Source of the DNA: Candidatus Kapaibacterium sp.
Lineage (GTDB): Bacteria; Bacteroidota; Ignavibacteria; Kapaibacteriales; UBA4661
Length of the DNA stretch: 64,000 nucleotides
Assembly: GCA_025358765.1 (NCBI GenBank)
Contig: JANYIG010000165.1
Coordinates: 6,024-70,023, forward strand
Direction of reading: 5' to 3'
A program made the translations under genes and the position numbers. Within the stretch, counting starts at the first letter, position 1, and the number at the start of each line of letters is the position of its first letter. A model generated the notes under the pieces. The model ran no database searches. It saw nothing but the letters and a program-made list of their open reading frames with translations, and was not told where the DNA came from. Shown here piece after piece: positions 1,573 through 20,819 of this stretch.

Positions 1573-1637
1573 ATTGATGCTTTTTGCCATTTTCCTTCTG
1601 CCTGCGACTTTTTCCGTGCGCAATTGCTCTTAGCTGT

Positions 1638-2207
1638 ATGAGCCAACACGAAGCCCTCTTTGTATTCATGGAACAACGACCTATCGCTCTTGAGCCTGTC
1701 GTCCCTGCACAGGAGTCCACACGCCATATACGCCGTGACGACTTCACGCGCCTGCTTGCGCCTGTGCAAGACAAGCTCTTGCGCTTTGCCTATACGCTCA
1801 CCCGCAATCGGGACGATGCACAAGACATCACAGCCGAGGCAGTATTGCTTGGATATGAGCAGTTTCATACGCTCCGTGACGAAGCGCTCTTCAAGACGTG
1901 GATGTTTACCATTGCCCAGCGCGTGTTTTACCGCGCCCTGCGGCGCTCGAAACGATTCATTCCGCTTGCAGATTCCGATGAACAGACATCCTCCATGCCG
2001 CTCCCAGAGCGCTCCGCAGAAGTCTCCTTGCTCTATGCCGCACTCGACCGCCTTCCCCGCGAACAACGCGAAACGGTCGTTTTGTTTGAAATTGTGGGGC
2101 TGTCGTTAGAGGAAATTCAGGCGGTACAAGGCGGTTCGCTTTCCGGCGTGAAATCGCGCCTCGTGCGCGGGCGGGAAAAACTCAAGCACTTGCTTGGAGA
2201 GAAGTGA
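1638..2207 (+). CDS. ECF (sigma-70 family, sigma-24-type) RNA polymerase sigma factor
   Basis: Region 2 (LLRFAYTLTRNRDDAQDITAEAVL) and region 4 (LPREQRETVVLFEIVGLSLEEIQAVQGGSLSGVKSRLVRGREKL) motifs are present. Start moved to the first ATG (MSQHE); the alternative ATG is at 1668. Confidence 0.8.
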   Translation: MSQHEALFVFMEQRPIALEPVVPAQESTRHIRRDDFTRLLAPVQDKLLRFAYTLTRNRDDAQDITAEAVLLGYEQFHTLRDEALFKTWMFTIAQRVFYRALRRSKRFIPLADSDEQTSSMPLPERSAEVSLLYAALDRLPREQRETVVLFEIVGLSLEEIQAVQGGSLSGVKSRLVRGREKLKHLLGEK

Positions 2208-2239
2208 AAATTACGGTAATGACCAAATGACCAACAACC

Positions 2240-3895
2240 ATGAACTCTGAACATAACCTTGACAATCTCTTTGAGCAGGCACGACGTGATGCCGAACGGC
2301 TCCGCTTCGGACAGGATGAACTCGCGAGCATCCTCGATAAAGCTGATTCCGTGCGCGGTGCGCCAATGCCGGCTCCTAACTCACGTATTCAACGACTTTT
2401 TAACCGCAAAACAATTATGAAAACATCGTTGCTCACAACAGTGGCGATCGTGACGGCGCTGCTCTGGAACAATGGCGAACAACCGCCGATACAGCAATCT
2501 ATCACACAAGTACCGTCGCAACAGCTTATACAGCCTACACAACCCACAGCATCAGCCATTCAGCATGGCAGCCAGCATCAACGACACGACCGCAACGGCA
2601 CAGCACAAAGACCGACAATTCAGACGACAACGCCGTTGAACTCTGTAGCGCCTGTGGATTCTGTGAAAGAACCTGCACCGTACGATTTTGTGGCGGTTGA
2701 TGATGGTGGTGAACCGAATACCGACATGAACCGCCTTTCGGAAATAGCAATATACCCGCCGGAAGCACGGCAAAAGGGCATTGAAGGCAATGTAATGGTG
2801 CGAGTACTGGTTGGCAAAAACGGTAAAGCAAAGCGGTGTTTTGTCGAACAAACTGCTTCACCTTTGTTGAACCAAGCGGCAATGGACGCGGTGCTGCAAG
2901 CTCCGTTCACGGCTGCCATTCATAACAAACAGCCCGTGGATTGTTGGGTTTCGTATCCAGTGAAATTTAAGCTGAACGAGATTTCTAAAGGCGGAACGAT
3001 AGGCGGGGTTTTGCTTTTGAAGCTGAATGATGAGGAGTTACAAACGCTCGGTGTGAGTACCTCTCAGTCTTCTGGAGAAAATACGACAACACTTATCACG
3101 GGAAAAGATACAACTGTTTTTAATCATCATCCGCGCTCGTTGAGTTTTTTGATTCGTTCGGATAAAGAAGCTAAACGTGCAAGCGTTCGGATGTATTACA
3201 AAAGGGTACAAGGTGGAACAAATTTGCAAGTCATAGAAGATGGATTTGTCTTCACCTTAGATGAAAAAAGCTCTGAAAAAATACCAGACATCGTCCCCGT
3301 TTTGTTATCACAAGGCATCAATGGGCAAAAAATTTCTGTTTATGATGGGGTAGATACTGTGGTAGTATCAAAAACTGTCAACCATTTAGTCCCTGTTGCT
3401 GTTGCTATCAACACTAAAGCGGAGCAAGCCGTGGTTCTCTGGTACGAACCAACGCCAGCCGTTCTTGCAGCATTGCCCGAACGCTACCGCACGGCATTGG
3501 AGCGTGAGTTAAAAGCATCCGAAAAATATTCCTCGCTTTGCGACATTCAAAACCCACAAGAACGCAAAGAAATCGAAAATGCCATAGCAGGGCGACCGTT
3601 TTTTGATACGTGGCGCTCGTGTGCTGGGGTGCTGTCGGTGAAGTCCGTTTTCCCCAACCCCGCACGGGAACAATCAACGGTGCGCTTTCGGTTGGATGCT
3701 CCGCGCAATATCACACTTTCGGTACACGACATCTATGGGCAGCGCCTTTCGAGTATTCCCCGCACAAACGAGCTTCCAAGCGGTGAACACGAACTTCTTT
3801 TGGATTTAACGGGCAGAACAGCAGGAATCTACCTTGTTGTTCTGACCACAGACAACGGCGAACAAGCCGTACAACGAATCATCGTGGAACGATAA
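2240..3895 (+). CDS. Anti-sigma-like membrane protein with a TonB C-terminal domain and a T9SS C-terminal sorting domain
   Basis: The gene starts 33 nt after the ECF sigma gene. Its layout is a ~59-aa N-terminal region, one hydrophobic segment (MKTSLLTTVAIVTALLW), a P/Q-rich linker, a TonB_C-like block (IYPPEARQKGIEGNVMVRVLVGKNGKAKRCFVEQTASPLLNQAAMDAVLQAPFTAAIHNKQPVDCWVSYPVKFKL), a ~300-aa unknown region, and a T9SS CTD (VFPNPAREQSTVRFRL...GIYLVVLTTDNGEQAVQRIIV). In an alternative model the start is the internal ATG at about 2417, making the hydrophobic segment a signal peptide. Confidence 0.55.
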   Translation: MNSEHNLDNLFEQARRDAERLRFGQDELASILDKADSVRGAPMPAPNSRIQRLFNRKTIMKTSLLTTVAIVTALLWNNGEQPPIQQSITQVPSQQLIQPTQPTASAIQHGSQHQRHDRNGTAQRPTIQTTTPLNSVAPVDSVKEPAPYDFVAVDDGGEPNTDMNRLSEIAIYPPEARQKGIEGNVMVRVLVGKNGKAKRCFVEQTASPLLNQAAMDAVLQAPFTAAIHNKQPVDCWVSYPVKFKLNEISKGGTIGGVLLLKLNDEELQTLGVSTSQSSGENTTTLITGKDTTVFNHHPRSLSFLIRSDKEAKRASVRMYYKRVQGGTNLQVIEDGFVFTLDEKSSEKIPDIVPVLLSQGINGQKISVYDGVDTVVVSKTVNHLVPVAVAINTKAEQAVVLWYEPTPAVLAALPERYRTALERELKASEKYSSLCDIQNPQERKEIENAIAGRPFFDTWRSCAGVLSVKSVFPNPAREQSTVRFRLDAPRNITLSVHDIYGQRLSSIPRTNELPSGEHELLLDLTGRTAGIYLVVLTTDNGEQAVQRIIVER

Positions 3896-4063: not shown

Positions 4064-4612
4064 TCAAAAACTAATCGTCAGTACATTCGTTGCGGCATTA
4101 AAGCTGCTCGCAAAACGCTGAAGCGGTCCTGATGCCGGTCCACTAAGACGGGAACCATCTTTAGAAGAATATTCTGAGCCATGACACGGGCAAACCATCA
4201 CCGCGCCTGCCGAACTCGGCAAACCCACGTCGCAGCCCGTGTGCGTACACACCGCAGTCAGCACCAGAAACTCAGTGGTCGAGGAACGAATAATGATCAA
4301 GTTTCGCCCGCCATTGTTTGCGCCAAATTGCTTTGTCACGGCTCCACCCACATTCTTCAACGCCACTTCGTTGCTCACATTCAACGTAGCCGTAATGCCG
4401 GAACTTTTGATGGTCGTATTCTCGCAAGAATTAACGAGCGTTGTCAGCGCTCCGGCGGAAAGCGTCACGCCCAACATAGATGCGGCTTTCAGCAAAAAAT
4501 CGCGCCTATCGGTTGTTGTATTTTGTTCTGTGTGCTGAAATTCTTCAAAGCGTTCTGTAATCTGTGGTTCACGCTGTGGTTCACTGGTATGGTAAGGAGT
4601 TGTTAACGTCAT
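4064..4612 (-). CDS. Tat-exported Rieske [2Fe-2S] domain protein
   Basis: The Rieske boxes CTHTGC and CPCHGSEY lie 16 residues apart. There is a twin-arginine signal RRDFLLKAASMLGVTLSAGA. Start set at the first ATG (MTLTTPY...), 3 nt after a stop; the ORF-track start at 4759 is upstream of this. Confidence 0.75.
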   Translation of the reverse strand: MTLTTPYHTSEPQREPQITERFEEFQHTEQNTTTDRRDFLLKAASMLGVTLSAGALTTLVNSCENTTIKSSGITATLNVSNEVALKNVGGAVTKQFGANNGGRNLIIIRSSTTEFLVLTAVCTHTGCDVGLPSSAGAVMVCPCHGSEYSSKDGSRLSGPASGPLQRFASSFNAATNVLTISF

Positions 4613-4643
4613 AGTTCTGGGGCGAAAAAGTTGCGAAAAAAAA

Positions 4644-5852
4644 TTAATAAAAAATGTGAAGCTGCACCGTCCAGCGCGTGGATGTGTACGCATCGGTGTC
4701 CGTCCAACGGTATTCGGGGCGGAGTTCCACGTAGGGCAGCAGAAAGATTTGTGCTCCAACGCTAATTTGCTGGAATGCTAATTCCGTCACATCGTTCGGA
4801 ACGGCAATACGGGTGCGCCCTCGGTCATAGCGCACGAATGGTAGCAATCCCGTTACGGGTTGATAGCTAAGTTCTGCCGTCATATTTCGTGTTTGTCGCC
4901 CATCTTTAACCCCTGAAAGCGCATATTCACCCATCAACGAGAGCCTATCGGTTAAGCCAACACCGGCAAAAGCACTCAGGAACGTGAATGCTTTATTGTT
5001 CAGTACCGAAGCGCCGATGTAGCTGTTGATAACATGGTCTTCCGTGCGAAGCCAGAGCATGGCTTTGGCAGTCATGGTCGGTGATTTTGCCAATGTGGAA
5101 AAATTAGAATTTGAATCCAGCCCATCCAGCAGTGGTACGGTTTCGGATTTTTGATTAACGGTTTGCAGCTGCGAAAGAGATTTTGGCAAAAATGCACCCG
5201 CCGTAAGCGTGAGCCATTGGAGACCATCGTAGGTGATTTCTGCGCCATATTCCGCATAATTTGGTGCGATAAGTGGATTGTAATCTGCACCCGCAATTCC
5301 ACGCACAATCATCGTATGGTCGTCGTAGCGAACACCGATGGACGGCTGGAAAAACCCTACGCGAAGTTGTGGCGACGTGAGTGTCGGCTGAATCACCACC
5401 GATGCCGCCCATGACTGCTGACCGGCATAGCGAAGCGGTCCGGCATTATACGTACCTTCAAGAGTCAGCCAAGACGTTGCCTGCCATGCCGCGTAGAATG
5501 CCAATTGCATGGGAAAAATACGGCGTTCTGCTTCAGCAGAGGTTGGTTTACGGGCAGATTGCATACGAAAATCCAAACCGAACGTCAACGCCCCATCAAA
5601 GAACGAATTTGACTCACGGTCTAAATCGTAAAGCCAGCCTAAGCCGACGCTGCGTGGTTTTAACAACGCCATCTCTTTTTCCATGTACCAGCCAAGTTCT
5701 CCGCGCAAGCCAGAGCCTTGGTTGTTAACATGGCAGTTCAGACATTTATTCCCACTTAGCAAGGAAAATTGGGGCAGTGCGGTCACGCTGTACGGCACTA
5801 CAAGTACCAATGCAGCGCAAAGGGCGATAACGAAAACGTATCGTGATTTCAT
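4644..5852 (-). CDS. cyc2: Cyc2-like fused mono-heme cytochrome c / outer-membrane beta-barrel porin
   Basis: It has a Sec signal peptide (MKSRYVFVIALCAALVLVVPYSVTA). A single CXXCH (GNKCLNCH) sits 12 aa after the predicted cleavage site. About 350 aa of amphipathic beta-strand-like sequence follow, ending in the OMP C-terminal signature ...VQLHIFY. The 402-aa size fits short Cyc2 cluster-1 proteins. Confidence 0.6.
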   Translation of the reverse strand: MKSRYVFVIALCAALVLVVPYSVTALPQFSLLSGNKCLNCHVNNQGSGLRGELGWYMEKEMALLKPRSVGLGWLYDLDRESNSFFDGALTFGLDFRMQSARKPTSAEAERRIFPMQLAFYAAWQATSWLTLEGTYNAGPLRYAGQQSWAASVVIQPTLTSPQLRVGFFQPSIGVRYDDHTMIVRGIAGADYNPLIAPNYAEYGAEITYDGLQWLTLTAGAFLPKSLSQLQTVNQKSETVPLLDGLDSNSNFSTLAKSPTMTAKAMLWLRTEDHVINSYIGASVLNNKAFTFLSAFAGVGLTDRLSLMGEYALSGVKDGRQTRNMTAELSYQPVTGLLPFVRYDRGRTRIAVPNDVTELAFQQISVGAQIFLLPYVELRPEYRWTDTDAYTSTRWTVQLHIFY

Positions 5853-5912
5853 AATAGTTAGAGGGGTTGAATGATGATTATGATAAAATTCTCAATTCTT
5901 AATTCCCAATTC

Positions 5913-6344
5913 TCAATTATTCAACGCGCCCTGCCGCACCCACGAACGAATCTGGGCGATTTCGCACTCATTGAGCCTGCTGCCAAATGGCATTTGCGTA
6001 ATTCCGTCGGAGCCTTGCACGGCAAATACAATACGATTGCCGATAGTATTGCGCCGCACCGTGTTGTAAGCACTGAGGTTTACGCCGTTGATATTGCCAC
6101 CGGCATCGGAATGACACGATATGCAATTTTTGTCCAAAAGAGGTTGAATAGTCTTGCTGTAGCTCACGCTCGCTGTGTCGCACGGACCAGCTGGAATAAT
6201 AGTTGTCGTATCTTTTTTTTCAATGCCGCGTGCGGGTCCGCTAAAATTATCACAGGATGTAAGGTAGAGCGTACAAACACTAATAACGACCAATGCGATC
6301 AAAATACATAGTTGCGACGGGCGCTTGAGCCAAAAAATAGTCAT
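5913..6344 (-). CDS. Lipoprotein mono-heme c-type cytochrome
   Basis: The signal peptide carries a lipobox (ISVCTLYLTS-C). There is a single CISCH heme-binding motif. The protein is 143 aa and sits immediately upstream, on the same strand, of the Cyc2-like gene with a 60-nt gap. Confidence 0.6.
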   Translation of the reverse strand: MTIFWLKRPSQLCILIALVVISVCTLYLTSCDNFSGPARGIEKKDTTTIIPAGPCDTASVSYSKTIQPLLDKNCISCHSDAGGNINGVNLSAYNTVRRNTIGNRIVFAVQGSDGITQMPFGSRLNECEIAQIRSWVRQGALNN

Positions 6345-6490
6345 AGATTCCTCCTAAAAAATCATTGAATTGGTGTTGACTACGGGAATTATCGTGGTTG
6401 TGGTCAACTTACGAAAAATTTTACGGTTCTTCATCCTGCACGTTTGGGAATTTTTAGATAAGTTCTTCGACAAAAGTAATTCGGTATCGG

Positions 6491-6514
6491 CAACAAGGCA
6501 GCATGCTGCCTTGT
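6491..6514. repeat. 24-bp perfect palindrome aacaaggcagcatgctgccttgtt
   Basis: Seen directly. A near-copy (aggcagcgcatgctgccttgtta) occurs at about 44640..44668, downstream of the RM gene. Confidence 0.3.
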
Positions 6515-6555
6515 TCACAAGATTGTATCGGAAAATTATTGATGACAAACTTAGG

Positions 6556-6763
6556 AACTGAAGTTACGCTTTGCTTTGAAATTCCCCGCTTTTTCCTAAA
6601 AGAGGGGTGTCCTGCCGTCTTCCCTGACGCATTGCGTCAGGGGACGGGGTGTTTCCCCCTCCGGCGATGAAGACCTACCCCGCCGCCCCGAAGACGGTGC
6701 GCCACCCCTTCATCACCGAGGACGGCTGACGAAGGGGAATTGTATCCAAGCGTAACTTCAGTT
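6556..6763. repeat. GC-rich ~208-bp element bounded by 16-bp perfect terminal inverted repeats (aactgaagttacgctt); MITE-like or structured RNA
   Basis: The TIRs are seen directly and extend imperfectly to ...aattcccc / ggggaatt.... The interior is strongly GC-rich compared with its flanks and holds several perfect hairpins (e.g. ccctgacgca-ttg-cgtcaggg). Confidence 0.4.
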
Positions 6764-6788
6764 AGGAACCATGAACGCTGTTTTTATT

Positions 6789-8216
6789 TTAACATTGCGC
6801 CAAACGACCGAGTGTTGTAAGCGCCTCATCTATTCCTGACGAAAAAGGAAACCCACAATTAAGGCGAATGTAATGGTAATATTCCTGCTTTTTCGAGAAA
6901 ATTGGTCCGGGCGCAATGCTGATTTTTTCCTGCAACGCCCGTTGATGCAGCGTTACGGCATTGACGTGTTCCGGAAGCTCCACCCACACGACATAACCAC
7001 CTTGCGGGCGAGTCACTTTTGTACCTTCGGGGAAATGCTCGCCCACCGCCTGAATCGTTTGCTGCACTTGGCTTTGAAGCGATTTCCGCATTGAGCGGAG
7101 ATGGTGCTCGTAGCCTCCGTTTTGCAGAAACCGTGCCAACACAAGTTGCGGAAGCGTTGATGTGGCAAGGCTTGTAGCGATTTTCTGATGAAAAACTTCT
7201 TTGTGGAAACGCCCGGGAACAATGAACCCAACACGCAACCCCGGCGAAATCGTCTTCGAGAACGAGGCACACAGCATCACCATTCCCTCGCGGTCGAAGG
7301 ATTGAAGCGGCTTCGGGCGTTTTTCGCCGAAATACAAATCACCGTAAATATCATCTTCAATCACAGGGATGCTGTATCGCGCTGCGAGTGCTGCGGTTGC
7401 TGCTTTGTGATTATCCGGCATACAGCTTCCGAGCGGATTATTGAAGTTTGGCGTAAGAACGCAGGCGCTTACCAAACCTTGTTTCATAGCGGTTTCGAGG
7501 TGATCGAGTGCAATGCCCGTTCGCGGGTCGGTCGGAATTTCTAAGGCTTTCATGCCCAAACCCTCGATAATCCGCAACACGCCGAAATAGCACGGGGACT
7601 CCACAGCAATTGTGTCACCGGCTCGTGCCACAGCTCGCAAGCACAAGTGCATGGCTTCCGTCGCGCCACAAGAGATAACAACCTCATCCGCCGCCGTTAT
7701 TGGTGCGCCCACACTGCCCCAGTCCATCGCCCGCAGCGCAATCTGTCGCCGAAGTTCAATATTCCCGCCCGAAGTTTCGTAACGGCTTATTTCCTGCACT
7801 TCCGTCCGCGCAATGGAGGCAAAAAGTTTGGAAATTTTGGTGAGTGGTAACAACTCCGGTGAAGGCACAGCACCACCAAGTGGCGCGAAATCGGCATACT
7901 GAGCAGCATTGATAACATCCTCGACTAGCGAAATCACGTTCACAGGAGCAGCGGGCGTGGGCGCAAAGCGCCGAATAGTTGGCTCCGGTGGCAGATTCCG
8001 TAGCTGCATTCGCACGTAGTAGCCGGATTGCGGGCGAGCATCTACCAAACCCATATCCTCAAGGTGCATGTATGCTTGCAACACGGTGGAAATACTCACA
8101 CTTTTTTGTTCGCTCATCCGCCGCACCGACGGCAAACGGTCGCCCGGTTGCAACACGCGCTGATGCACTTGGCGCTGGATTTCGCGGGCTATTTGTTCGT
8201 ACAGATGTGTTTCCAT
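6789..8216 (-). CDS. MocR/GabR-family transcriptional regulator (GntR HTH fused to a PLP aminotransferase-like domain)
   Basis: N-terminal GntR HTH (IAREIQRQVHQRVLQPGDRLPSVRRMSEQKSVSISTVLQAYMHLEDMGLV) followed by an aminotransferase class I/II fold. Confidence 0.8.
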   Translation of the reverse strand: METHLYEQIAREIQRQVHQRVLQPGDRLPSVRRMSEQKSVSISTVLQAYMHLEDMGLVDARPQSGYYVRMQLRNLPPEPTIRRFAPTPAAPVNVISLVEDVINAAQYADFAPLGGAVPSPELLPLTKISKLFASIARTEVQEISRYETSGGNIELRRQIALRAMDWGSVGAPITAADEVVISCGATEAMHLCLRAVARAGDTIAVESPCYFGVLRIIEGLGMKALEIPTDPRTGIALDHLETAMKQGLVSACVLTPNFNNPLGSCMPDNHKAATAALAARYSIPVIEDDIYGDLYFGEKRPKPLQSFDREGMVMLCASFSKTISPGLRVGFIVPGRFHKEVFHQKIATSLATSTLPQLVLARFLQNGGYEHHLRSMRKSLQSQVQQTIQAVGEHFPEGTKVTRPQGGYVVWVELPEHVNAVTLHQRALQEKISIAPGPIFSKKQEYYHYIRLNCGFPFSSGIDEALTTLGRLAQC

Positions 8217-8224
8217 TATGTGTC

Positions 8225-10231
8225 TTATGATTCGATGGTTGTAGTATCGTCAGAGGCGTTATTGAAGGTTTTTTCAGATTCTTGGATTTCCTCGGATTCA
8301 TTAACCGTTTCGCCGTCAAAGTATGCACGGAGCCTCTGTGCTGCCTTTATGCCAATAGCATTCTCGATAGCCTCGTGGGAAGCCGTTTTTACGCCTTCAA
8401 CCGAACCGAACGTGATGAGTAACTTTTGTGCGGTTTTGTCGCCGATTCCTGCAATGCCCGTTAGTTCCGTTTGAAGCGTGCGTTTGTCGCGCAGCAAACG
8501 GTGGAACTCAATCGCAAAGCGGTGTGCCTCGTCGCGGGCTTGTTGAATAAGTTTCAGGCTGCTGGAGGTTTTGGGCAGCAAAATAGAATCGGATTGTCCG
8601 GGAACGAATACTTCTTCTAACCGCTTTGCCAAGCCAATCGTGGGGATGTGTCCGTTTGCGGCTTCTTCGCCAAATGCGCCATCATGTAGCCCTAAGCCGC
8701 GCAAAATCTCGACCGCGTGGGAAAGCTGTCCTTTTCCGCCGTCTATCACGATTAAGTCTGGTCGCGCTGAGTTTTCTTCCAACATCCGCTTGTAGCGCCG
8801 CCCGACGACCTCTTGCATGGATTTAAAGTCGTCAATGCCTTCCACCGTCCTGATTTTATATTTACGATATTCCGATTTTTTCGCTTTGCCATCCACAAAC
8901 ACTACCATCGAAGAAACCGTTTCGCTGCCTTGAAAGTGCGAGTTATCGAAACAATCAATCCGGCGTGGTGGGTGCTTCAAACGCAAATCGCGCTGCAACG
9001 CCAGCACCGAACGCGGTAGAATGGAGCCTTTATCTTCCTCGCGCTTCAAACGCTGGAGTTCAAGTTCTCGCAACAAAAATTCCGCATTCGCCGCCGCCAT
9101 GTTCACAAGTTTACGTTTGTCGCCAATCTGCGGCACGGAGATTTCAATTTTGCTCCCACGTTTGTCGCGGAGCCATGTTTCAAGGATTTCCCGTTGTTCG
9201 AGTTCCACCGGCAGGAAAATTTCGTCCGGCACATCGTCGCTTTCAATGTAAAATCGCTCGAACGTAGCTTGCAATAACTCTTCGGTGGTTTTACCTTCGG
9301 AATTTGCTATGTAAAAATGTTGCCGCCCGATGAGCTTGCCGTCACGCACTTTGAAAATCACCGAACACGCATCCCGCTCGCTTTGGGCAACCGCCATGAT
9401 GTCGCGATCTATCAATTCCGTCGTGACCACTTTTTGTTTGTCGGAATATTCACGGAGCGATTGCAATCGGTTCCGCAACCGCAAGGCTTCCTCAAAGCGT
9501 AATTCCTCCGATGCACGCTCCATATCGAGCTTAATTTCTTGCTCCACCGAGCGCGTTTTGCCCTTCAAAATCTGCATAGCTTGTTTTATCATCGTTCCGT
9601 AGTGTTCCCGCGAAACAAAACCTTCACACGGACCTTCACATTTTTTGATGTGATAATCAAGGCAGACTTTGTGCTTACCTTTTTGGATGGAATCGTCCGT
9701 CAAATCAAGGCTGCACGAGCGAATCGGAAAAATCGAGCGCAATGTGTCGAGCATGGCATACATATACCTTGGTTCGCCGTAGGGACCGAAATATTTGCTC
9801 CCGTCGCGGATGATTTTGCGTGTAGCAAAGATGCGCGGATACGGCTCGTTCGTAACGCGGATGTACGGATATGACTTATCGTCCTTGAGCAAAATATTAT
9901 AGCGTGGCTTGTGCTCTTTGATGAGCGTATTTTCGAGGATGAGCGCCTCGACTTCCGAATCGGTGATGATAAACTCAAAATCCACAATTTTTTGCACCAG
10001 CACTTTCGTCTTCGCATCCATCGGGCGACCCGCTTGAAAATAGCTACGGACGCGGTTGCGAAGGTTTTTTGCTTTGCCGACGTAGATAATTGTTCCGTCG
10101 GCACTTTTGTGCAAATACACGCCCGGATTTTTCGGCAGGTTATGCAGCTTCTCCGCCAGCGTCGCACTTGGGATAAGGAGTTCTTCCTGTTCCGAAGCCA
10201 TTTCATGGTTTGGTTGTGCTTGGTCTTGCAT
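8225..10231 (-). CDS. uvrC: Excinuclease ABC subunit C (UvrC)
   Basis: GIY-YIG motif (GVYLHKSADGTIIYVGKAKNLRNRVRSY), a UvrBC-interaction domain, and a C-terminal HhH pair (GIAGIGDKTAQKLLITFGSVEGV). The ORF-track start at 10237 is TTG; the first ATG is at 10231, with another candidate at 10201. Confidence 0.9.
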   Translation of the reverse strand: MQDQAQPNHEMASEQEELLIPSATLAEKLHNLPKNPGVYLHKSADGTIIYVGKAKNLRNRVRSYFQAGRPMDAKTKVLVQKIVDFEFIITDSEVEALILENTLIKEHKPRYNILLKDDKSYPYIRVTNEPYPRIFATRKIIRDGSKYFGPYGEPRYMYAMLDTLRSIFPIRSCSLDLTDDSIQKGKHKVCLDYHIKKCEGPCEGFVSREHYGTMIKQAMQILKGKTRSVEQEIKLDMERASEELRFEEALRLRNRLQSLREYSDKQKVVTTELIDRDIMAVAQSERDACSVIFKVRDGKLIGRQHFYIANSEGKTTEELLQATFERFYIESDDVPDEIFLPVELEQREILETWLRDKRGSKIEISVPQIGDKRKLVNMAAANAEFLLRELELQRLKREEDKGSILPRSVLALQRDLRLKHPPRRIDCFDNSHFQGSETVSSMVVFVDGKAKKSEYRKYKIRTVEGIDDFKSMQEVVGRRYKRMLEENSARPDLIVIDGGKGQLSHAVEILRGLGLHDGAFGEEAANGHIPTIGLAKRLEEVFVPGQSDSILLPKTSSSLKLIQQARDEAHRFAIEFHRLLRDKRTLQTELTGIAGIGDKTAQKLLITFGSVEGVKTASHEAIENAIGIKAAQRLRAYFDGETVNESEEIQESEKTFNNASDDTTTIES

Positions 10232-19118: not shown

Positions 19119-20819
19119 TCACTGTTTAATAAACTTTTGCATTGTGATGGCTTTTGTTTTTTTGTCCATGAGTCGCACGAAATAAACGCCGGAAGCAAAA
19201 TTGGCAACATCTATTCCATTCTCCAACTGCGGCTGCGGAAGCATAAGGATTGCACGTCCCAACGCATTTGTTACCGTTACATAGTAGGCTTCAGTGCTGG
19301 CATCGGCGAATTTGATCCATACCTTATCGTTTGCAGGATTAGGGTACAACGAAAATTTCAATGTGGGAGTATTATTGTCCAAAATTCCCGTCGTACTTGT
19401 CACCACAAACTGCCCCATCATACCTTGGTCTTCGTGAGTGGCAAAATGGCAGTGATACATAAACGGATGAATGGGATCAGAATAACTATTAAACTGCGTG
19501 ATAAACCGAATGGTTTCACCTGCTCTCACAAATACTTCGTCCTTCCACCCTTGCTCGGGTAATGGCGGAACAGAACCATTTCTACTGAGTATGTGAAATT
19601 GAACGTCATGGATATGAAACGGGTGCGCCAGAGTAGATGTGCTGCGTATTTCCCAAATCTCCGTACTGTTGAGCGGTATTTGATAGTCTATCCGTTTAAT
19701 ATCAAAAAATTGGTTATTGAGAATGGCTTTTAGCACACCACCACCAGCGTTAAAATCAGAAATTGAGAGGGTGCGCGTTATCGTTGCGTTGGCAGCATCA
19801 AAAAATTTATTGACGGTGAGTGCTGTAGGAATGGTCGTTACAGGCTTTGCCGTCGGGGATGTGATGTTCAAGCGAAGAATCTGAAAATCTTTCCCGGACA
19901 AGGCATCTTGAGTTACTTTAGAAGCAGTACCAGCTATATCACTCGCAAGCGTGGAGTTGTATGCCATCAGATTTACGACCTGTGATTGCTGGCTGGTACA
20001 ATTAACCAAGACCTCAATTCGTTCGCCCGAACATATCATATAACGGGTTATAGGAACTGGCGCGTCTAATAAACCACCATCCGAGGTAATAACATAAAAC
20101 GCTCGATTATCGCTAAAGCCAAGATTATAACACCGTTGAGTGGCAGAATTTAATATACGAAAACGTACTACTTGTGCGGGGATTGAGTATTGCGGGTTCA
20201 AAACACCATTGACCAACATAACATCAGGATGCGTTCCATCTAAGATAAATTGGTTGGTTGAGCTGAATCTACGGTCATTGATGACCAGTGGAATATCATC
20301 CACGCCATAGATGCGGGGTAGATTTAATGATGACTCAACAGAATCGCGGACAATAATGAATCCACCAACACCCGCTGTGGTTTGAGCTTCCGTTTTTTCA
20401 TGCAGATGCGGGTGATACCAATACGTTGCGGCATTATTCGTGACCTTCCAAAACGGTTGCCACGTCGTACCGGGCGGAATAACCTGATGCGGTCCGCCGT
20501 CCATCACCGCCGGAAGATGTATCCCGTGCCAATGCAGCGTAGTTGAATCGTTCAATGTATTTTTTACGTTCATACGAACAGTATCACCTTTGTTAAAAAA
20601 CAACGTCGGACCCCAAAAATTTGTATTGTTAATGCCGCCTGTAATAGTCTGGTTGCCTGTACGAAATTGTTTGAGGGTGTCCTTGATGGTGAGCGAAAAA
20701 TTTGTCCCTGAAAGTGTGTCGGGAATCCAGAGCGTGTTGTAGGTTTGACTTTGAGCGGATGAAATATGGCAAAGAAGTATGAGCGTAAGAAGCGAAAAAA
20801 ACAGAGAAGATGATTTCAT
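19119..20819 (-). CDS. Multicopper oxidase (laccase-like, three-domain) with a T9SS C-terminal sorting domain
   Basis: The copper ligand motifs HWHGIHL, HPHLHE, HPFHIHDVQFHIL and HCHFATHEDQGMMGQF are all present. It has an N-terminal signal peptide. The C-terminus carries a T9SS CTD (LYPNPANDKVWIKF...GVYFVRLMDKKTKAITMQKFIK). Confidence 0.8.
   Translation of the reverse strand: MKSSSLFFSLLTLILLCHISSAQSQTYNTLWIPDTLSGTNFSLTIKDTLKQFRTGNQTITGGINNTNFWGPTLFFNKGDTVRMNVKNTLNDSTTLHWHGIHLPAVMDGGPHQVIPPGTTWQPFWKVTNNAATYWYHPHLHEKTEAQTTAGVGGFIIVRDSVESSLNLPRIYGVDDIPLVINDRRFSSTNQFILDGTHPDVMLVNGVLNPQYSIPAQVVRFRILNSATQRCYNLGFSDNRAFYVITSDGGLLDAPVPITRYMICSGERIEVLVNCTSQQSQVVNLMAYNSTLASDIAGTASKVTQDALSGKDFQILRLNITSPTAKPVTTIPTALTVNKFFDAANATITRTLSISDFNAGGGVLKAILNNQFFDIKRIDYQIPLNSTEIWEIRSTSTLAHPFHIHDVQFHILSRNGSVPPLPEQGWKDEVFVRAGETIRFITQFNSYSDPIHPFMYHCHFATHEDQGMMGQFVVTSTTGILDNNTPTLKFSLYPNPANDKVWIKFADASTEAYYVTVTNALGRAILMLPQPQLENGIDVANFASGVYFVRLMDKKTKAITMQKFIKQ

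Follow-up and report, generated by a model that had tools for sequence, protein, structure and literature searches.

A haem-porin protein of Cyc2-like design and its predicted Rieske lipoprotein partner form a conserved candidate electron-transfer module in Kapabacteria and related lineages

Through which partners might an outer-membrane porin with a haem of its own exchange electrons with the cell? This question is raised by three adjacent genes of Candidatus Kapaibacterium sp., found on the minus strand of a 64,000-nucleotide (nt) stretch of DNA that we call the window (GenBank assembly GCA_025358765.1, contig JANYIG010000165.1, positions 6,024 to 70,023 of the forward strand). Open reading frame (ORF) calling placed them in the order cytochrome c lipoprotein, porin-cytochrome, Rieske protein. 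The original prediction, made from the DNA sequence, had viewed them as a candidate operon for extracellular electron transfer or Fe(II) oxidation built around a protein like Cyc2, which is the main genetic marker for inferring microbial Fe(II) oxidation from genomes and metagenomes. Our analyses indicate that the central protein has the design of Cyc2 but belongs to a separate family, and they support the view that the three genes are a conserved module, with a Rieske partner that is not a local accident.

Organization of the gene cluster

The cluster comprises the following elements, in the order of transcription.
5913-6344, minus strand: gene 1, coding for a monohaem class-I-type cytochrome c lipoprotein of 143 amino acids (aa); identified by ORF, motifs and weak family matches
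5853-5912, minus strand: 60-nt gap between genes 1 and 2, AT-rich, with GAGAATT repeats
4644-5852, minus strand: gene 2, coding for a 402-aa fused monohaem cytochrome c and 16-strand outer-membrane porin; identified by ORF, motifs and AlphaFold2
4613-4643, minus strand: 31-nt gap between genes 2 and 3, read from the sequence
4064-4612, minus strand: gene 3, coding for a 182-aa Rieske [2Fe-2S] protein with a twin-arginine translocation (Tat) signal and a lipobox; identified by ORF, Pfam and motifs

The three genes are thus co-directional and separated by gaps of 60 and 31 nt, as originally proposed. In the mechanical ORF list, gene 3 extended over 4064-4759 from a TTG codon and would have overlapped the end of the porin gene. 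Starting at the ATG at 4612 gives the 182-aa product and the 31-nt gap, and this is the Rieske gene annotated in public assemblies whose 402-aa protein is identical. The cytochrome c gene is overlapped by an opposite-strand ORF of 146 aa (5871-6311, plus strand; 150-587 in locus L001), which one public assembly chose instead; we rejected it as spurious, as homology backs the minus-strand gene.

A simple terminator scan detected no terminator-like site in either gap. Two weak promoter-like matches (9 of 12 positions) overlap the 60-nt gap; the promoter and terminator scans of the region gave no more matches than shuffled sequence did. Co-transcription of the three genes is therefore likely.

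A haem-porin protein without a named family

The 402-aa protein starts with a signal peptide of 25 residues (5778-5852) that ends in ...VTA25. Its N-terminus, MKSRYVFVIALCAALVLVVPYSVTA up to the cleavage site and LPQF beyond it, combines a positive n-region and a hydrophobic core with a small residue, A25, at position -1; the remainder of the canonical A-x-A is absent. This and the other signal-peptide, lipoprotein and Tat assignments were read by eye from the sequence. The sole CXXCH haem-binding motif, C37-L-N-C-H41 (5730-5744), begins at the 12th residue past the cleavage site, and the protein ends with the C-terminal beta-signal LHIFY. The Sec signal peptide, the position of the single CLNCH motif and the LHIFY terminus all agree with what had been predicted. 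The motif is also conserved: C37, C40 and H41 show no variation among 33 aligned homologues, and distant members have them too.

Two segments of the protein are referred to below.
5754-5780, minus strand: Cyc2-like N-terminal motif A25-LPQFSLLS33 (alignment)
4647-5588, minus strand: barrel, residues 89-402 (AlphaFold2 model)

The barrel, first surmised from the sequence, was recovered in an AlphaFold2 model with 16 long strands (predicted local distance difference test score, 80) and is structurally similar to the porins OprP and OprO. Searches of Pfam and NCBIfam with the 402-aa protein returned no family, and its best homologue is only 60% identical; the best relatives come from metagenome-assembled genomes (MAGs) of Candidatus Kapaibacterium and Ignavibacteria. 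A profile search of the whole library returned a superfamily of 945 representatives at E <= 1e-3 and 329 at E <= 1e-10. The family consensus around the haem motif reads A-L-P-Q-F-S-L-L-T-G-N-K-C-x-N-C-H-V-N-x-Q-G-G-G-L-R. The barrel is strongly conserved, with the invariant motifs F-P114-M115-Q, R-Y-D-D-H179-T, E-L-R-P-E-Y-R and Q-L-H399-I-F-Y, variant forms of which persist in distant members. M115, H179 and H399 are conceivable as the sixth haem ligand or as part of a route for protons or electrons.

Relation of the haem-porin to Cyc2

We compared the 402-aa protein with the description of Cyc2 by Keffer et al. (2021), which comprises a signal peptide, one CXXCH, a 16-strand barrel modeled on OprO/OprP and a length of at least 365 aa, along with the motif AXPXFAR[Q/K][T/Y] just upstream of CXXCH and PXL shortly (about 4 residues) downstream (PMC8406198). 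The signal peptide, the single CXXCH, the length and the 16-strand barrel are all present. Agreement in the motifs is partial, as seen when the window register ALPQFSLLS-GNK-CLNCHV is set against AVPAFARQT-GMA-CMACHV of Ralstonia: A, P and F of the upstream motif match, and A-R-[Q/K] do not. The family consensus has the T of the last position, and the window protein also shares with the Cyc2-motif proteins the G that follows the motif, the CXXCH itself and the V after it. PXL has no counterpart in the window protein, which reads V-N-N-Q-G-S-G-L-R after H41, with no Pro; Q45, G46, G48 and R50 in this segment are invariant or nearly so among homologues. More distant members of the superfamily carry LPRFALQ(T/Q)G..C..CH, which is nearer the Cyc2 consensus.

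The comparators were plasmid-borne proteobacterial proteins, which are Cyc2 by sequence criteria, not by biochemical verification. A tblastn search of plasmids with a distant family member led to a Polymorphobacter protein, matched through the haem motif, and from there to proteins of Ralstonia, Acidiphilium, Paraburkholderia, Ideonella and Methylocystis with the published consensus, exact or near (Ralstonia AVPAFARQT-GMA-CMACHVSFPEL, Methylocystis AVPSFARQT-GQP-CATCHTAFPEL, Acidiphilium AIPAFAAQT). Ralstonia is among the genera with Cyc2 homologues named by Keffer et al. (PMC8406198). A second homologue search returned only alphaproteobacterial relatives and did not reach verified iron oxidizers.

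Alignment of profiles with hhalign linked the window family to the Cyc2-motif set with a probability of 92-93% (E 3.5e-7 to 5e-7), over the signal peptide and haem motif only. The haem segments of the 402-aa protein and of Cyc2 therefore probably share a common origin. A hidden Markov model (HMM) built from 17 proteobacterial Cyc2-motif proteins gave the window protein 15.8 bits, confined to the N-terminal 40 residues. The Cyc2-like architecture that had been claimed thus stands on the motifs and the modeled barrel, and membership in the Cyc2 family proper does not, given the partial motif, the missing PXL and the low HMM score. These comparisons place the protein in a family of its own, one that appears to span Kapabacteria, Ignavibacteria, Latescibacterota and related lineages.

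A Rieske protein with a predicted lipid anchor

The product of gene 3 matched the Rieske family PF00355 (E 4.5e-11; 43 bits against a cut-off of 20.3) and, in its Tat signal, the UCR_Fe-S_N family PF10399 (24.3 bits against a cut-off of 24). Its motifs are as follows.
4490-4507, minus strand: twin-arginine motif R36-R-D-F-L-L41 (DRRDFLL)
4424-4426, minus strand: lipobox cysteine C63 (L-V-N-S-C63-E), after the Tat h-region
4232-4249, minus strand: Rieske box I, C122-THTG-C127, with the ligand box C122-T-H124
4169-4192, minus strand: Rieske box II, C141-PCHGSE-Y148, with the ligand box C141-P-C-H144

Both the twin-arginine motif and the lipobox cysteine were found in all 54 aligned Rieske proteins encoded beside porin homologues (partner Rieske proteins), usually with acidic residues next to the cysteine. 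The Cys and His ligands of the cluster are kept in the 54 proteins, with box II spacing that varies in four. Gene 3 was originally described as coding for a Tat-exported soluble Rieske [2Fe-2S] protein. Tat export and the cluster are upheld by the two Pfam matches; solubility is not, because the lipobox cysteine C63 is conserved in 54 of 54 partners. We predict instead that the protein is a Tat-exported lipoprotein, held by a lipid anchor.

The closest solved relatives of the gene 3 product are PetA of the Rhodobacter bc1 complex and PetC of the b6f complex, and the window boxes CTHTGC...CPCHGSEY are those of bc1 PetA. Its scores nevertheless remained below the NCBIfam cut-offs for the bc1 (TIGR01416, 49.5 vs 97.4) and b6f proteins (NF045928, 43.5 vs 250), as well as for the arsenite oxidase small subunit AioB (TIGR02694, 21.8 vs 95.65). 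No gene for cytochrome b, cytochrome c1/f or the arsenite-oxidase large subunit was recognized in the ORF map of the 64-kb window, where Pfam searches covered the neighbors of the cluster and one other gene. This agrees with the earlier remark that no bc1/b6f or arsenite-oxidase large subunit is adjacent. Nor did cytochrome b, c1/f or AioA appear when the 14 commonest gene clusters of the conserved neighborhood were inspected. By its sequence, the gene 3 product appears to carry a cluster of bc1/b6f type but not to be a subunit of a bc complex.

The potential of bc1-type Rieske centres is raised by a Ser and a Tyr residue. The window protein keeps both; among the 50 partner Rieske proteins compared, just 3 have the complete signature, the majority showing Ala and/or Phe instead. 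The redox potential of the relay therefore probably differs between lineages. Two relatives carry tandem forms of the protein.
L037, 7188-8372: tandem Rieske lipoprotein next to a porin-cytochrome homologue, with three modules, the middle one without His ligands
L020, 7494-8429: tandem Rieske lipoprotein next to a porin-cytochrome homologue, with two complete modules

Here and below, numbers with L denote loci fetched for comparison.

The cytochrome c lipoprotein

Gene 1 was foreseen as coding for a 143-aa lipoprotein with one CXXCH (CISCH), and the lipobox and the haem motif were both located in its sequence.
C31 at 6252-6254, minus strand: lipobox L28-T29-S30-C31
6111-6125, minus strand: haem motif C74-I-S-C-H78, the only CXXCH
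5991-5993, minus strand: probable axial Met118 (Q-M118-P)

The product matched Cytochrome_CBB3 (PF13442) with E 0.0015 and 19.2 bits, under the cut-off of 27; it also gave weak matches to the c550, c551 and c6 families and, in PDB, to cytochrome c6. Homologues were found in 31 of 84 loci, often directly upstream of the porin gene, and those examined keep the lipobox, the CXXCH and a (Q/P)-M-P motif.

Conservation of the Rieske partner

To survey the neighborhoods of the porin-cytochrome, relatives were scanned with one genome per species, which yielded 147 relatives; the best 80 loci were fetched, and neighbors were counted by our own ORF calling and phmmer at E <= 1e-3. This survey of Rieske co-occurrence, suggested by the original prediction, revealed a Rieske homologue downstream on the same strand, within about 1.4 kb, at 56 of 84 loci. 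When loci of the Kapabacteria/Ignavibacteria/Chlorobiota type (i.e., other than Latescibacterota) were considered, a Rieske gene lay near the porin gene in 52 of 65. P0002, the closest relative on a long contig (59% identity), has the window's order of cytochrome c, porin and Rieske genes. Elsewhere the order changes: in a distant superfamily member, the porin gene is immediately preceded by two Rieske genes, and a distant marine scaffold reads Rieske, porin, YceI, small membrane protein.

Where the Rieske gene is at about 1-1.3 kb, two genes intervene, coding for a small two-helix membrane protein of 100-140 aa and a YceI-domain protein. In 29 loci, the gene for the YceI protein (PF04264, E 1.3e-20) separates the porin gene from the Rieske gene, and in a distant marine relative it adjoins the porin gene; examples of the YceI gene are at L006, 7675-8316, and L098, 6234-6815. 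The small membrane proteins as a family, of 87-141 aa, have hydrophobic helices at both the N- and C-terminus, a conserved W-x-D-x-F-x-(L/P)-G-L motif and no Pfam family. They are found in more than 55 of the 80 genome loci and are about as frequent a partner as the Rieske protein. Three examples are listed.
L028, 7164-7466: small membrane protein
L006, 7223-7648: small membrane protein
L098, 6816-7079: small membrane protein

Two further proteins recur at these loci. A 364-aa lipoprotein with no Pfam family is encoded directly upstream of the porin-cytochrome gene in 22 loci (L031, L038-L040, L042-L044 and 15 further loci, e.g., L080, 4886-5980). The second, of about 930 aa, has immunoglobulin (Ig) repeats and an N-terminal C-x-x-C-H-like motif and is encoded downstream of the Rieske gene in 15-19 loci. 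A search of the window for all four of these proteins, from the small membrane protein and YceI to the 364-aa lipoprotein and the Ig-repeat protein, found none of them.

Six proteobacterial Cyc2-motif loci served for comparison. All are flanked by c-type cytochrome genes, downstream in five and upstream in Paraburkholderia, in agreement with the cytochrome partners reported for Cyc2 loci (PMC10715153). In the six loci, no Rieske gene is annotated; that of Ralstonia lacks annotation altogether. In the full-text literature, we found no description of a Cyc2-Rieske pairing or of a module of Cyc2-like, Rieske and YceI proteins. The view that the Rieske partner is the unusual feature of the cluster is supported by these comparisons and by the lack of a described precedent in the literature searched.

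The features of the cluster exceed what chance would produce, as the CXXCH motif is invariant in 33 homologues and the neighborhood recurs in dozens of genomes. The observation that co-occurrence survives rearrangement, together with the multiplied redox modules, argues for a physical electron relay.

Flanking region and other genes of the window

Upstream of the module are a regulator gene and a non-coding stretch with two unusual elements.
6789-8216, minus strand: MocR/GntR-aminotransferase regulator (Pfam/NCBIfam), upstream of the module
6345-6788, minus strand: non-coding stretch separating the MocR and cytochrome c genes, with a palindrome and a GC-rich insert

The GC-rich insert of 176 nt lies within a perfect 16-nt inverted repeat (6556-6571/6748-6763; region 6545-6775, minus strand), so that both the MocR gene and the repeat-bounded GC-rich element were found where the original prediction had placed them. 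As RNA, the insert adopts a very stable multi-branched fold (-110.8 kcal/mol, z = -6.8 vs shuffles). A known RNA was considered and set aside, as no Rfam family matched. No copy of the insert was found in 98 fetched loci, and a 25-nt search allowing up to 3 mismatches detected no further copy of the repeat arm in the window. The insert could be a mobile element or a structured leader. A perfect 24-nt palindrome, AACAAGGCAGCATGCTGCCTTGTT, is located at 6492-6515, some 150 nt ahead of the start codon of the cytochrome c gene, and may be an operator or the hairpin terminator of the MocR gene. In L086, a MocR/GntR-aminotransferase regulator gene (7374-8876) is also found downstream of a stand-alone porin-cytochrome homologue; the presence of MocR in both places could reflect leftover synteny or regulation of the module.

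On the other side, genes for an extracytoplasmic function (ECF) sigma factor and then a 551-aa protein that combines a TonB C-terminal domain with a type-9-secretion tail (1584-3895, plus strand) converge on the Rieske gene. This pair was considered as part of the system and discarded: it is kept in the near-identical public contig L001 and is not found beside more distant homologues. The window has a G+C content of 48%, and several of its proteins bear type-9-secretion sorting domains. Together with the best relatives of the 402-aa protein, these traits point to a host that is probably Kapabacteria-like and belongs to the Bacteroidota/Chlorobiota group. One protein with such a domain, about 13 kb from the cluster (19119-20819, minus strand), is a 566-aa multicopper oxidase (Cu-oxidase_3, Cu-oxidase_2) whose sorting tail predicts that it is secreted or at the surface; multicopper oxidases of that class can oxidize Fe(II) or Mn(II).

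A proposed electron conduit and its alternatives

We propose that the module is an envelope electron conduit with a Rieske relay, a reading to which we assign a probability of roughly 0.55. In this model, the 402-aa protein would be exported by Sec and inserted in the outer membrane as a 16-strand barrel, with its short N-terminal segment binding one haem c covalently. Because the number of strands is sixteen, both termini would be periplasmic, and the haem segment would sit at or inside the periplasmic mouth of the barrel. The Rieske and cytochrome c lipoproteins, tethered in the periplasm, would exchange electrons with the porin haem and link it to the respiratory chain.

By analogy with Cyc2, the job of such a module is most likely the uptake of electrons from Fe(II) or another soluble donor outside the cell. 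Single electrons would pass from the donor to the haem, from there to the Rieske protein and/or cytochrome c, and on to a terminal oxidase. The midpoint potential of Cyc2 of M. ferrooxydans (PV-1) is +208 mV (PMC8406198). Judged by the known potentials of Rieske centres, this value would be compatible with transfer to such a centre, and inward flow from soluble Fe(II) seems thermodynamically reasonable. Fe(II) oxidation itself as the function of the module is a tentative assignment.

A more specific form of the proposal, which we put forward as possible only, is that lineages of the Fibrobacterota-Chlorobiota-Bacteroidota (FCB) group have a distinct envelope conduit in which the haem-porin is served by a lipid-anchored Rieske protein, not by multihaem or soluble cytochromes. 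Electrons would then cross the periplasm via iron-sulfur centres and perhaps a carrier-bound quinone. The Rieske protein would be multiplied to chains of two or three centres in some lineages, and in most a YceI-type quinone or isoprenoid carrier and the two-helix membrane protein would take part. If so, FCB bacteria would have in this module their equivalent of Mtr/Mto and Cyc2-Cyc1, and some of the redox cycling of iron and humic substances ascribed to Ignavibacteria and Kapabacteria might be due to it.

Several observations weigh against the conduit or its assignment to Fe(II) oxidation. The R and Q/K of the Cyc2 motif and PXL are missing, detectable homology to Cyc2 is confined to some 40 residues at the N-terminus, as also reflected in the HMM score, and the barrels align without confidence. 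Of the 15 Latescibacterota loci, all encode the small membrane protein and only 1 has a Rieske gene, so that the porin does not strictly require a Rieske partner. Some porin paralogues stand alone, without a partner (L012, L015-L017, L086), and few partner Rieske proteins have the complete high-potential signature. The carriers belong to lineages known in the literature mainly as heterotrophs or Fe(III) reducers, and no oxidase, carbon-fixation or other respiratory genes appear in the ORF map of the window.

The same conduit might run outward. The Rieske protein would then take electrons from the (mena)quinol pool and deliver them through the porin haem to chelated Fe(III), humic quinones or oxygen species outside, assisted in most relatives by YceI, as an isoprenoid or quinone binder, and by the small membrane protein. 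Rieske centres are the natural oxidants of quinols in bc complexes, and menaquinol-type centres lack the Ser/Tyr high-potential signature, as most partner Rieske proteins do. Yet to our knowledge there is no precedent for a Rieske protein oxidizing quinol without the Qo site of a cytochrome b, and a single haem in a pore would reach soluble acceptors only. The position of the YceI gene between the porin and Rieske genes, or beside the porin gene in the marine relative, would suit outward flow, but the window keeps its trio of cytochrome c, porin and Rieske without YceI or the small membrane protein, and its Rieske protein has the high-potential Ser and Tyr. From the literature, this direction gains from reports of Ignavibacteria as Fe(III) reducers that nonetheless have Cyc2-like genes (PMC6344600; PMC7914226) and from the discussion of A. 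ferrooxidans Cyc2 isoforms in Fe(III) reduction too (PMC10715153). On balance, we consider outward flow rather unlikely.

We regard as quite improbable that the module is non-respiratory and acts in iron acquisition or protection at the envelope, e.g., through iron redox reactions at the pore during uptake, detoxification of Fe(II) and reactive oxygen or sensing of the external redox state. Two or three one-electron carriers, and tandem multi-Rieske chains in relatives, resemble a wire, not a sensor, and no FeoB, TonB-dependent receptor or iron ABC importer occurs in the conserved neighborhood. The ECF sigma factor and the TonB-C/type-9-secretion protein that adjoin the cluster would fit such a role, but they are not conserved beside homologues; the MocR regulator does recur beside the module. 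Other points in its favor are the wide distribution of the family, going by MAG names, in heterotrophic lineages of hot springs, lakes, wastewater and groundwater, and a conservation of the barrel unusual for a porin (FPMQ, RYDDHT, ELRPEYR, QLH.FY), which suggests a specific internal site. Moreover, Cyc2 homologues in organisms that do not oxidize iron may have other roles (PMC8406198).

Finally, that the three genes are mere neighbors of unrelated function and the 402-aa protein an ordinary porin with a fortuitous CXXCH, as the weak promoter-like matches in the 60-nt gap and the solitary homologues might suggest, is close to refuted by the synteny data, since CXXCH and its flanking motif are invariant across phyla and Rieske co-occurrence at 52 of 65 loci survives changes of gene order.

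Implications

The window family has the design of Cyc2 yet is annotated as "hypothetical" and has no Pfam or NCBIfam model, and marker HMMs may miss or mis-score it. It is common in Kapabacteria, Ignavibacteria and Latescibacterota of hot springs, lakes, groundwater and wastewater. We found no description in the literature of a free-standing periplasmic Rieske partner of an outer-membrane cytochrome, and the Rieske-paired haem-porin looks like an undescribed envelope electron-transfer route. Confirmation would extend the electron-transfer routes known from Gram-negative envelopes by an iron-sulfur relay and would yield a defined, testable gene set, with porin-cytochrome and Rieske lipoprotein at its core and cytochrome c, YceI and the small membrane protein as optional members.

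Comparison with known systems

Pairs of YceI and cytochrome b561 in Proteobacteria resemble the window's relatives in that a YceI-family periplasmic protein is encoded beside a membrane redox protein. In the relatives, however, the YceI gene adjoins haem-porin and Rieske genes, and the window has no YceI.

As in MtrCAB, MtoAB and PioAB, an outer-membrane barrel would join the periplasm and the outside through redox cofactors and is encoded together with periplasmic carriers in an apparent operon. Those systems thread a separate decahaem cytochrome through a 26-strand barrel, whereas the window module has a single haem fused to a 16-strand barrel and a putative relay that includes an iron-sulfur protein.

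With PetA and PetC of the bc1 and b6f complexes and with AioB, the window Rieske protein shares the Tat signal, box I (CTHxGC) and box II (CPCHGS.Y) with the disulfide cysteines. It differs from them in having a lipobox cysteine in place of the uncleaved transmembrane anchor, in the absence of nearby genes for cytochrome b, c1/f or AioA, in scores far under the family cut-offs and in the tandem multi-Rieske forms among its relatives.

The A. ferrooxidans chain also employs small one-electron carriers from the outer-membrane cytochrome to the inner-membrane chain, namely, the high-potential iron-sulfur proteins (HiPIPs) Iro/Hip, rusticyanin and Cyc1 (PMC10715153). Its carriers are a [4Fe-4S] HiPIP or a cupredoxin, and the window's would be a Rieske [2Fe-2S] protein of another fold, lipid-anchored by prediction and with a gene linked directly to that of the porin. 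Among iron-sulfur carriers of iron-oxidation chains, the HiPIP of acidithiobacilli comes closest as a precedent in function.

The closest parallel to the 402-aa protein is Cyc2 itself (Cyc2 of A. ferrooxidans, Cyc2 PV-1 of M. ferrooxydans and Cyt572 of Leptospirillum; PMC8406198, PMC7029218). Shared with it are the signal peptide, a CXXCH near the mature N-terminus, the A-x-P-x-F ... [T/S]-G-x-x-CXXCH-V register, a length of about 400 aa, a 16-strand barrel nearest OprP/OprO and an adjoining gene for a monohaem cytochrome c partner. In the window family, however, "AR[Q/K]" is replaced by "SLL" and PXL by an invariant Q-G-x-G-x-R, and the window protein's barrel has no detectable sequence similarity to that of Cyc2. 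Cyc2 barrels are reported as poorly conserved, whereas that of the window family is strongly conserved, with invariant motifs of its own. Cyc2 is partnered by Cyc1, cupredoxin and oxidase genes; the partners of the window family are a Rieske lipoprotein, YceI and a small membrane protein, and its taxonomic range is that of FCB-group lineages. By these comparisons, the module would work like a Cyc2-type conduit with one of the two Cyc2 sequence motifs absent, the other kept in part, and a different set of partners.

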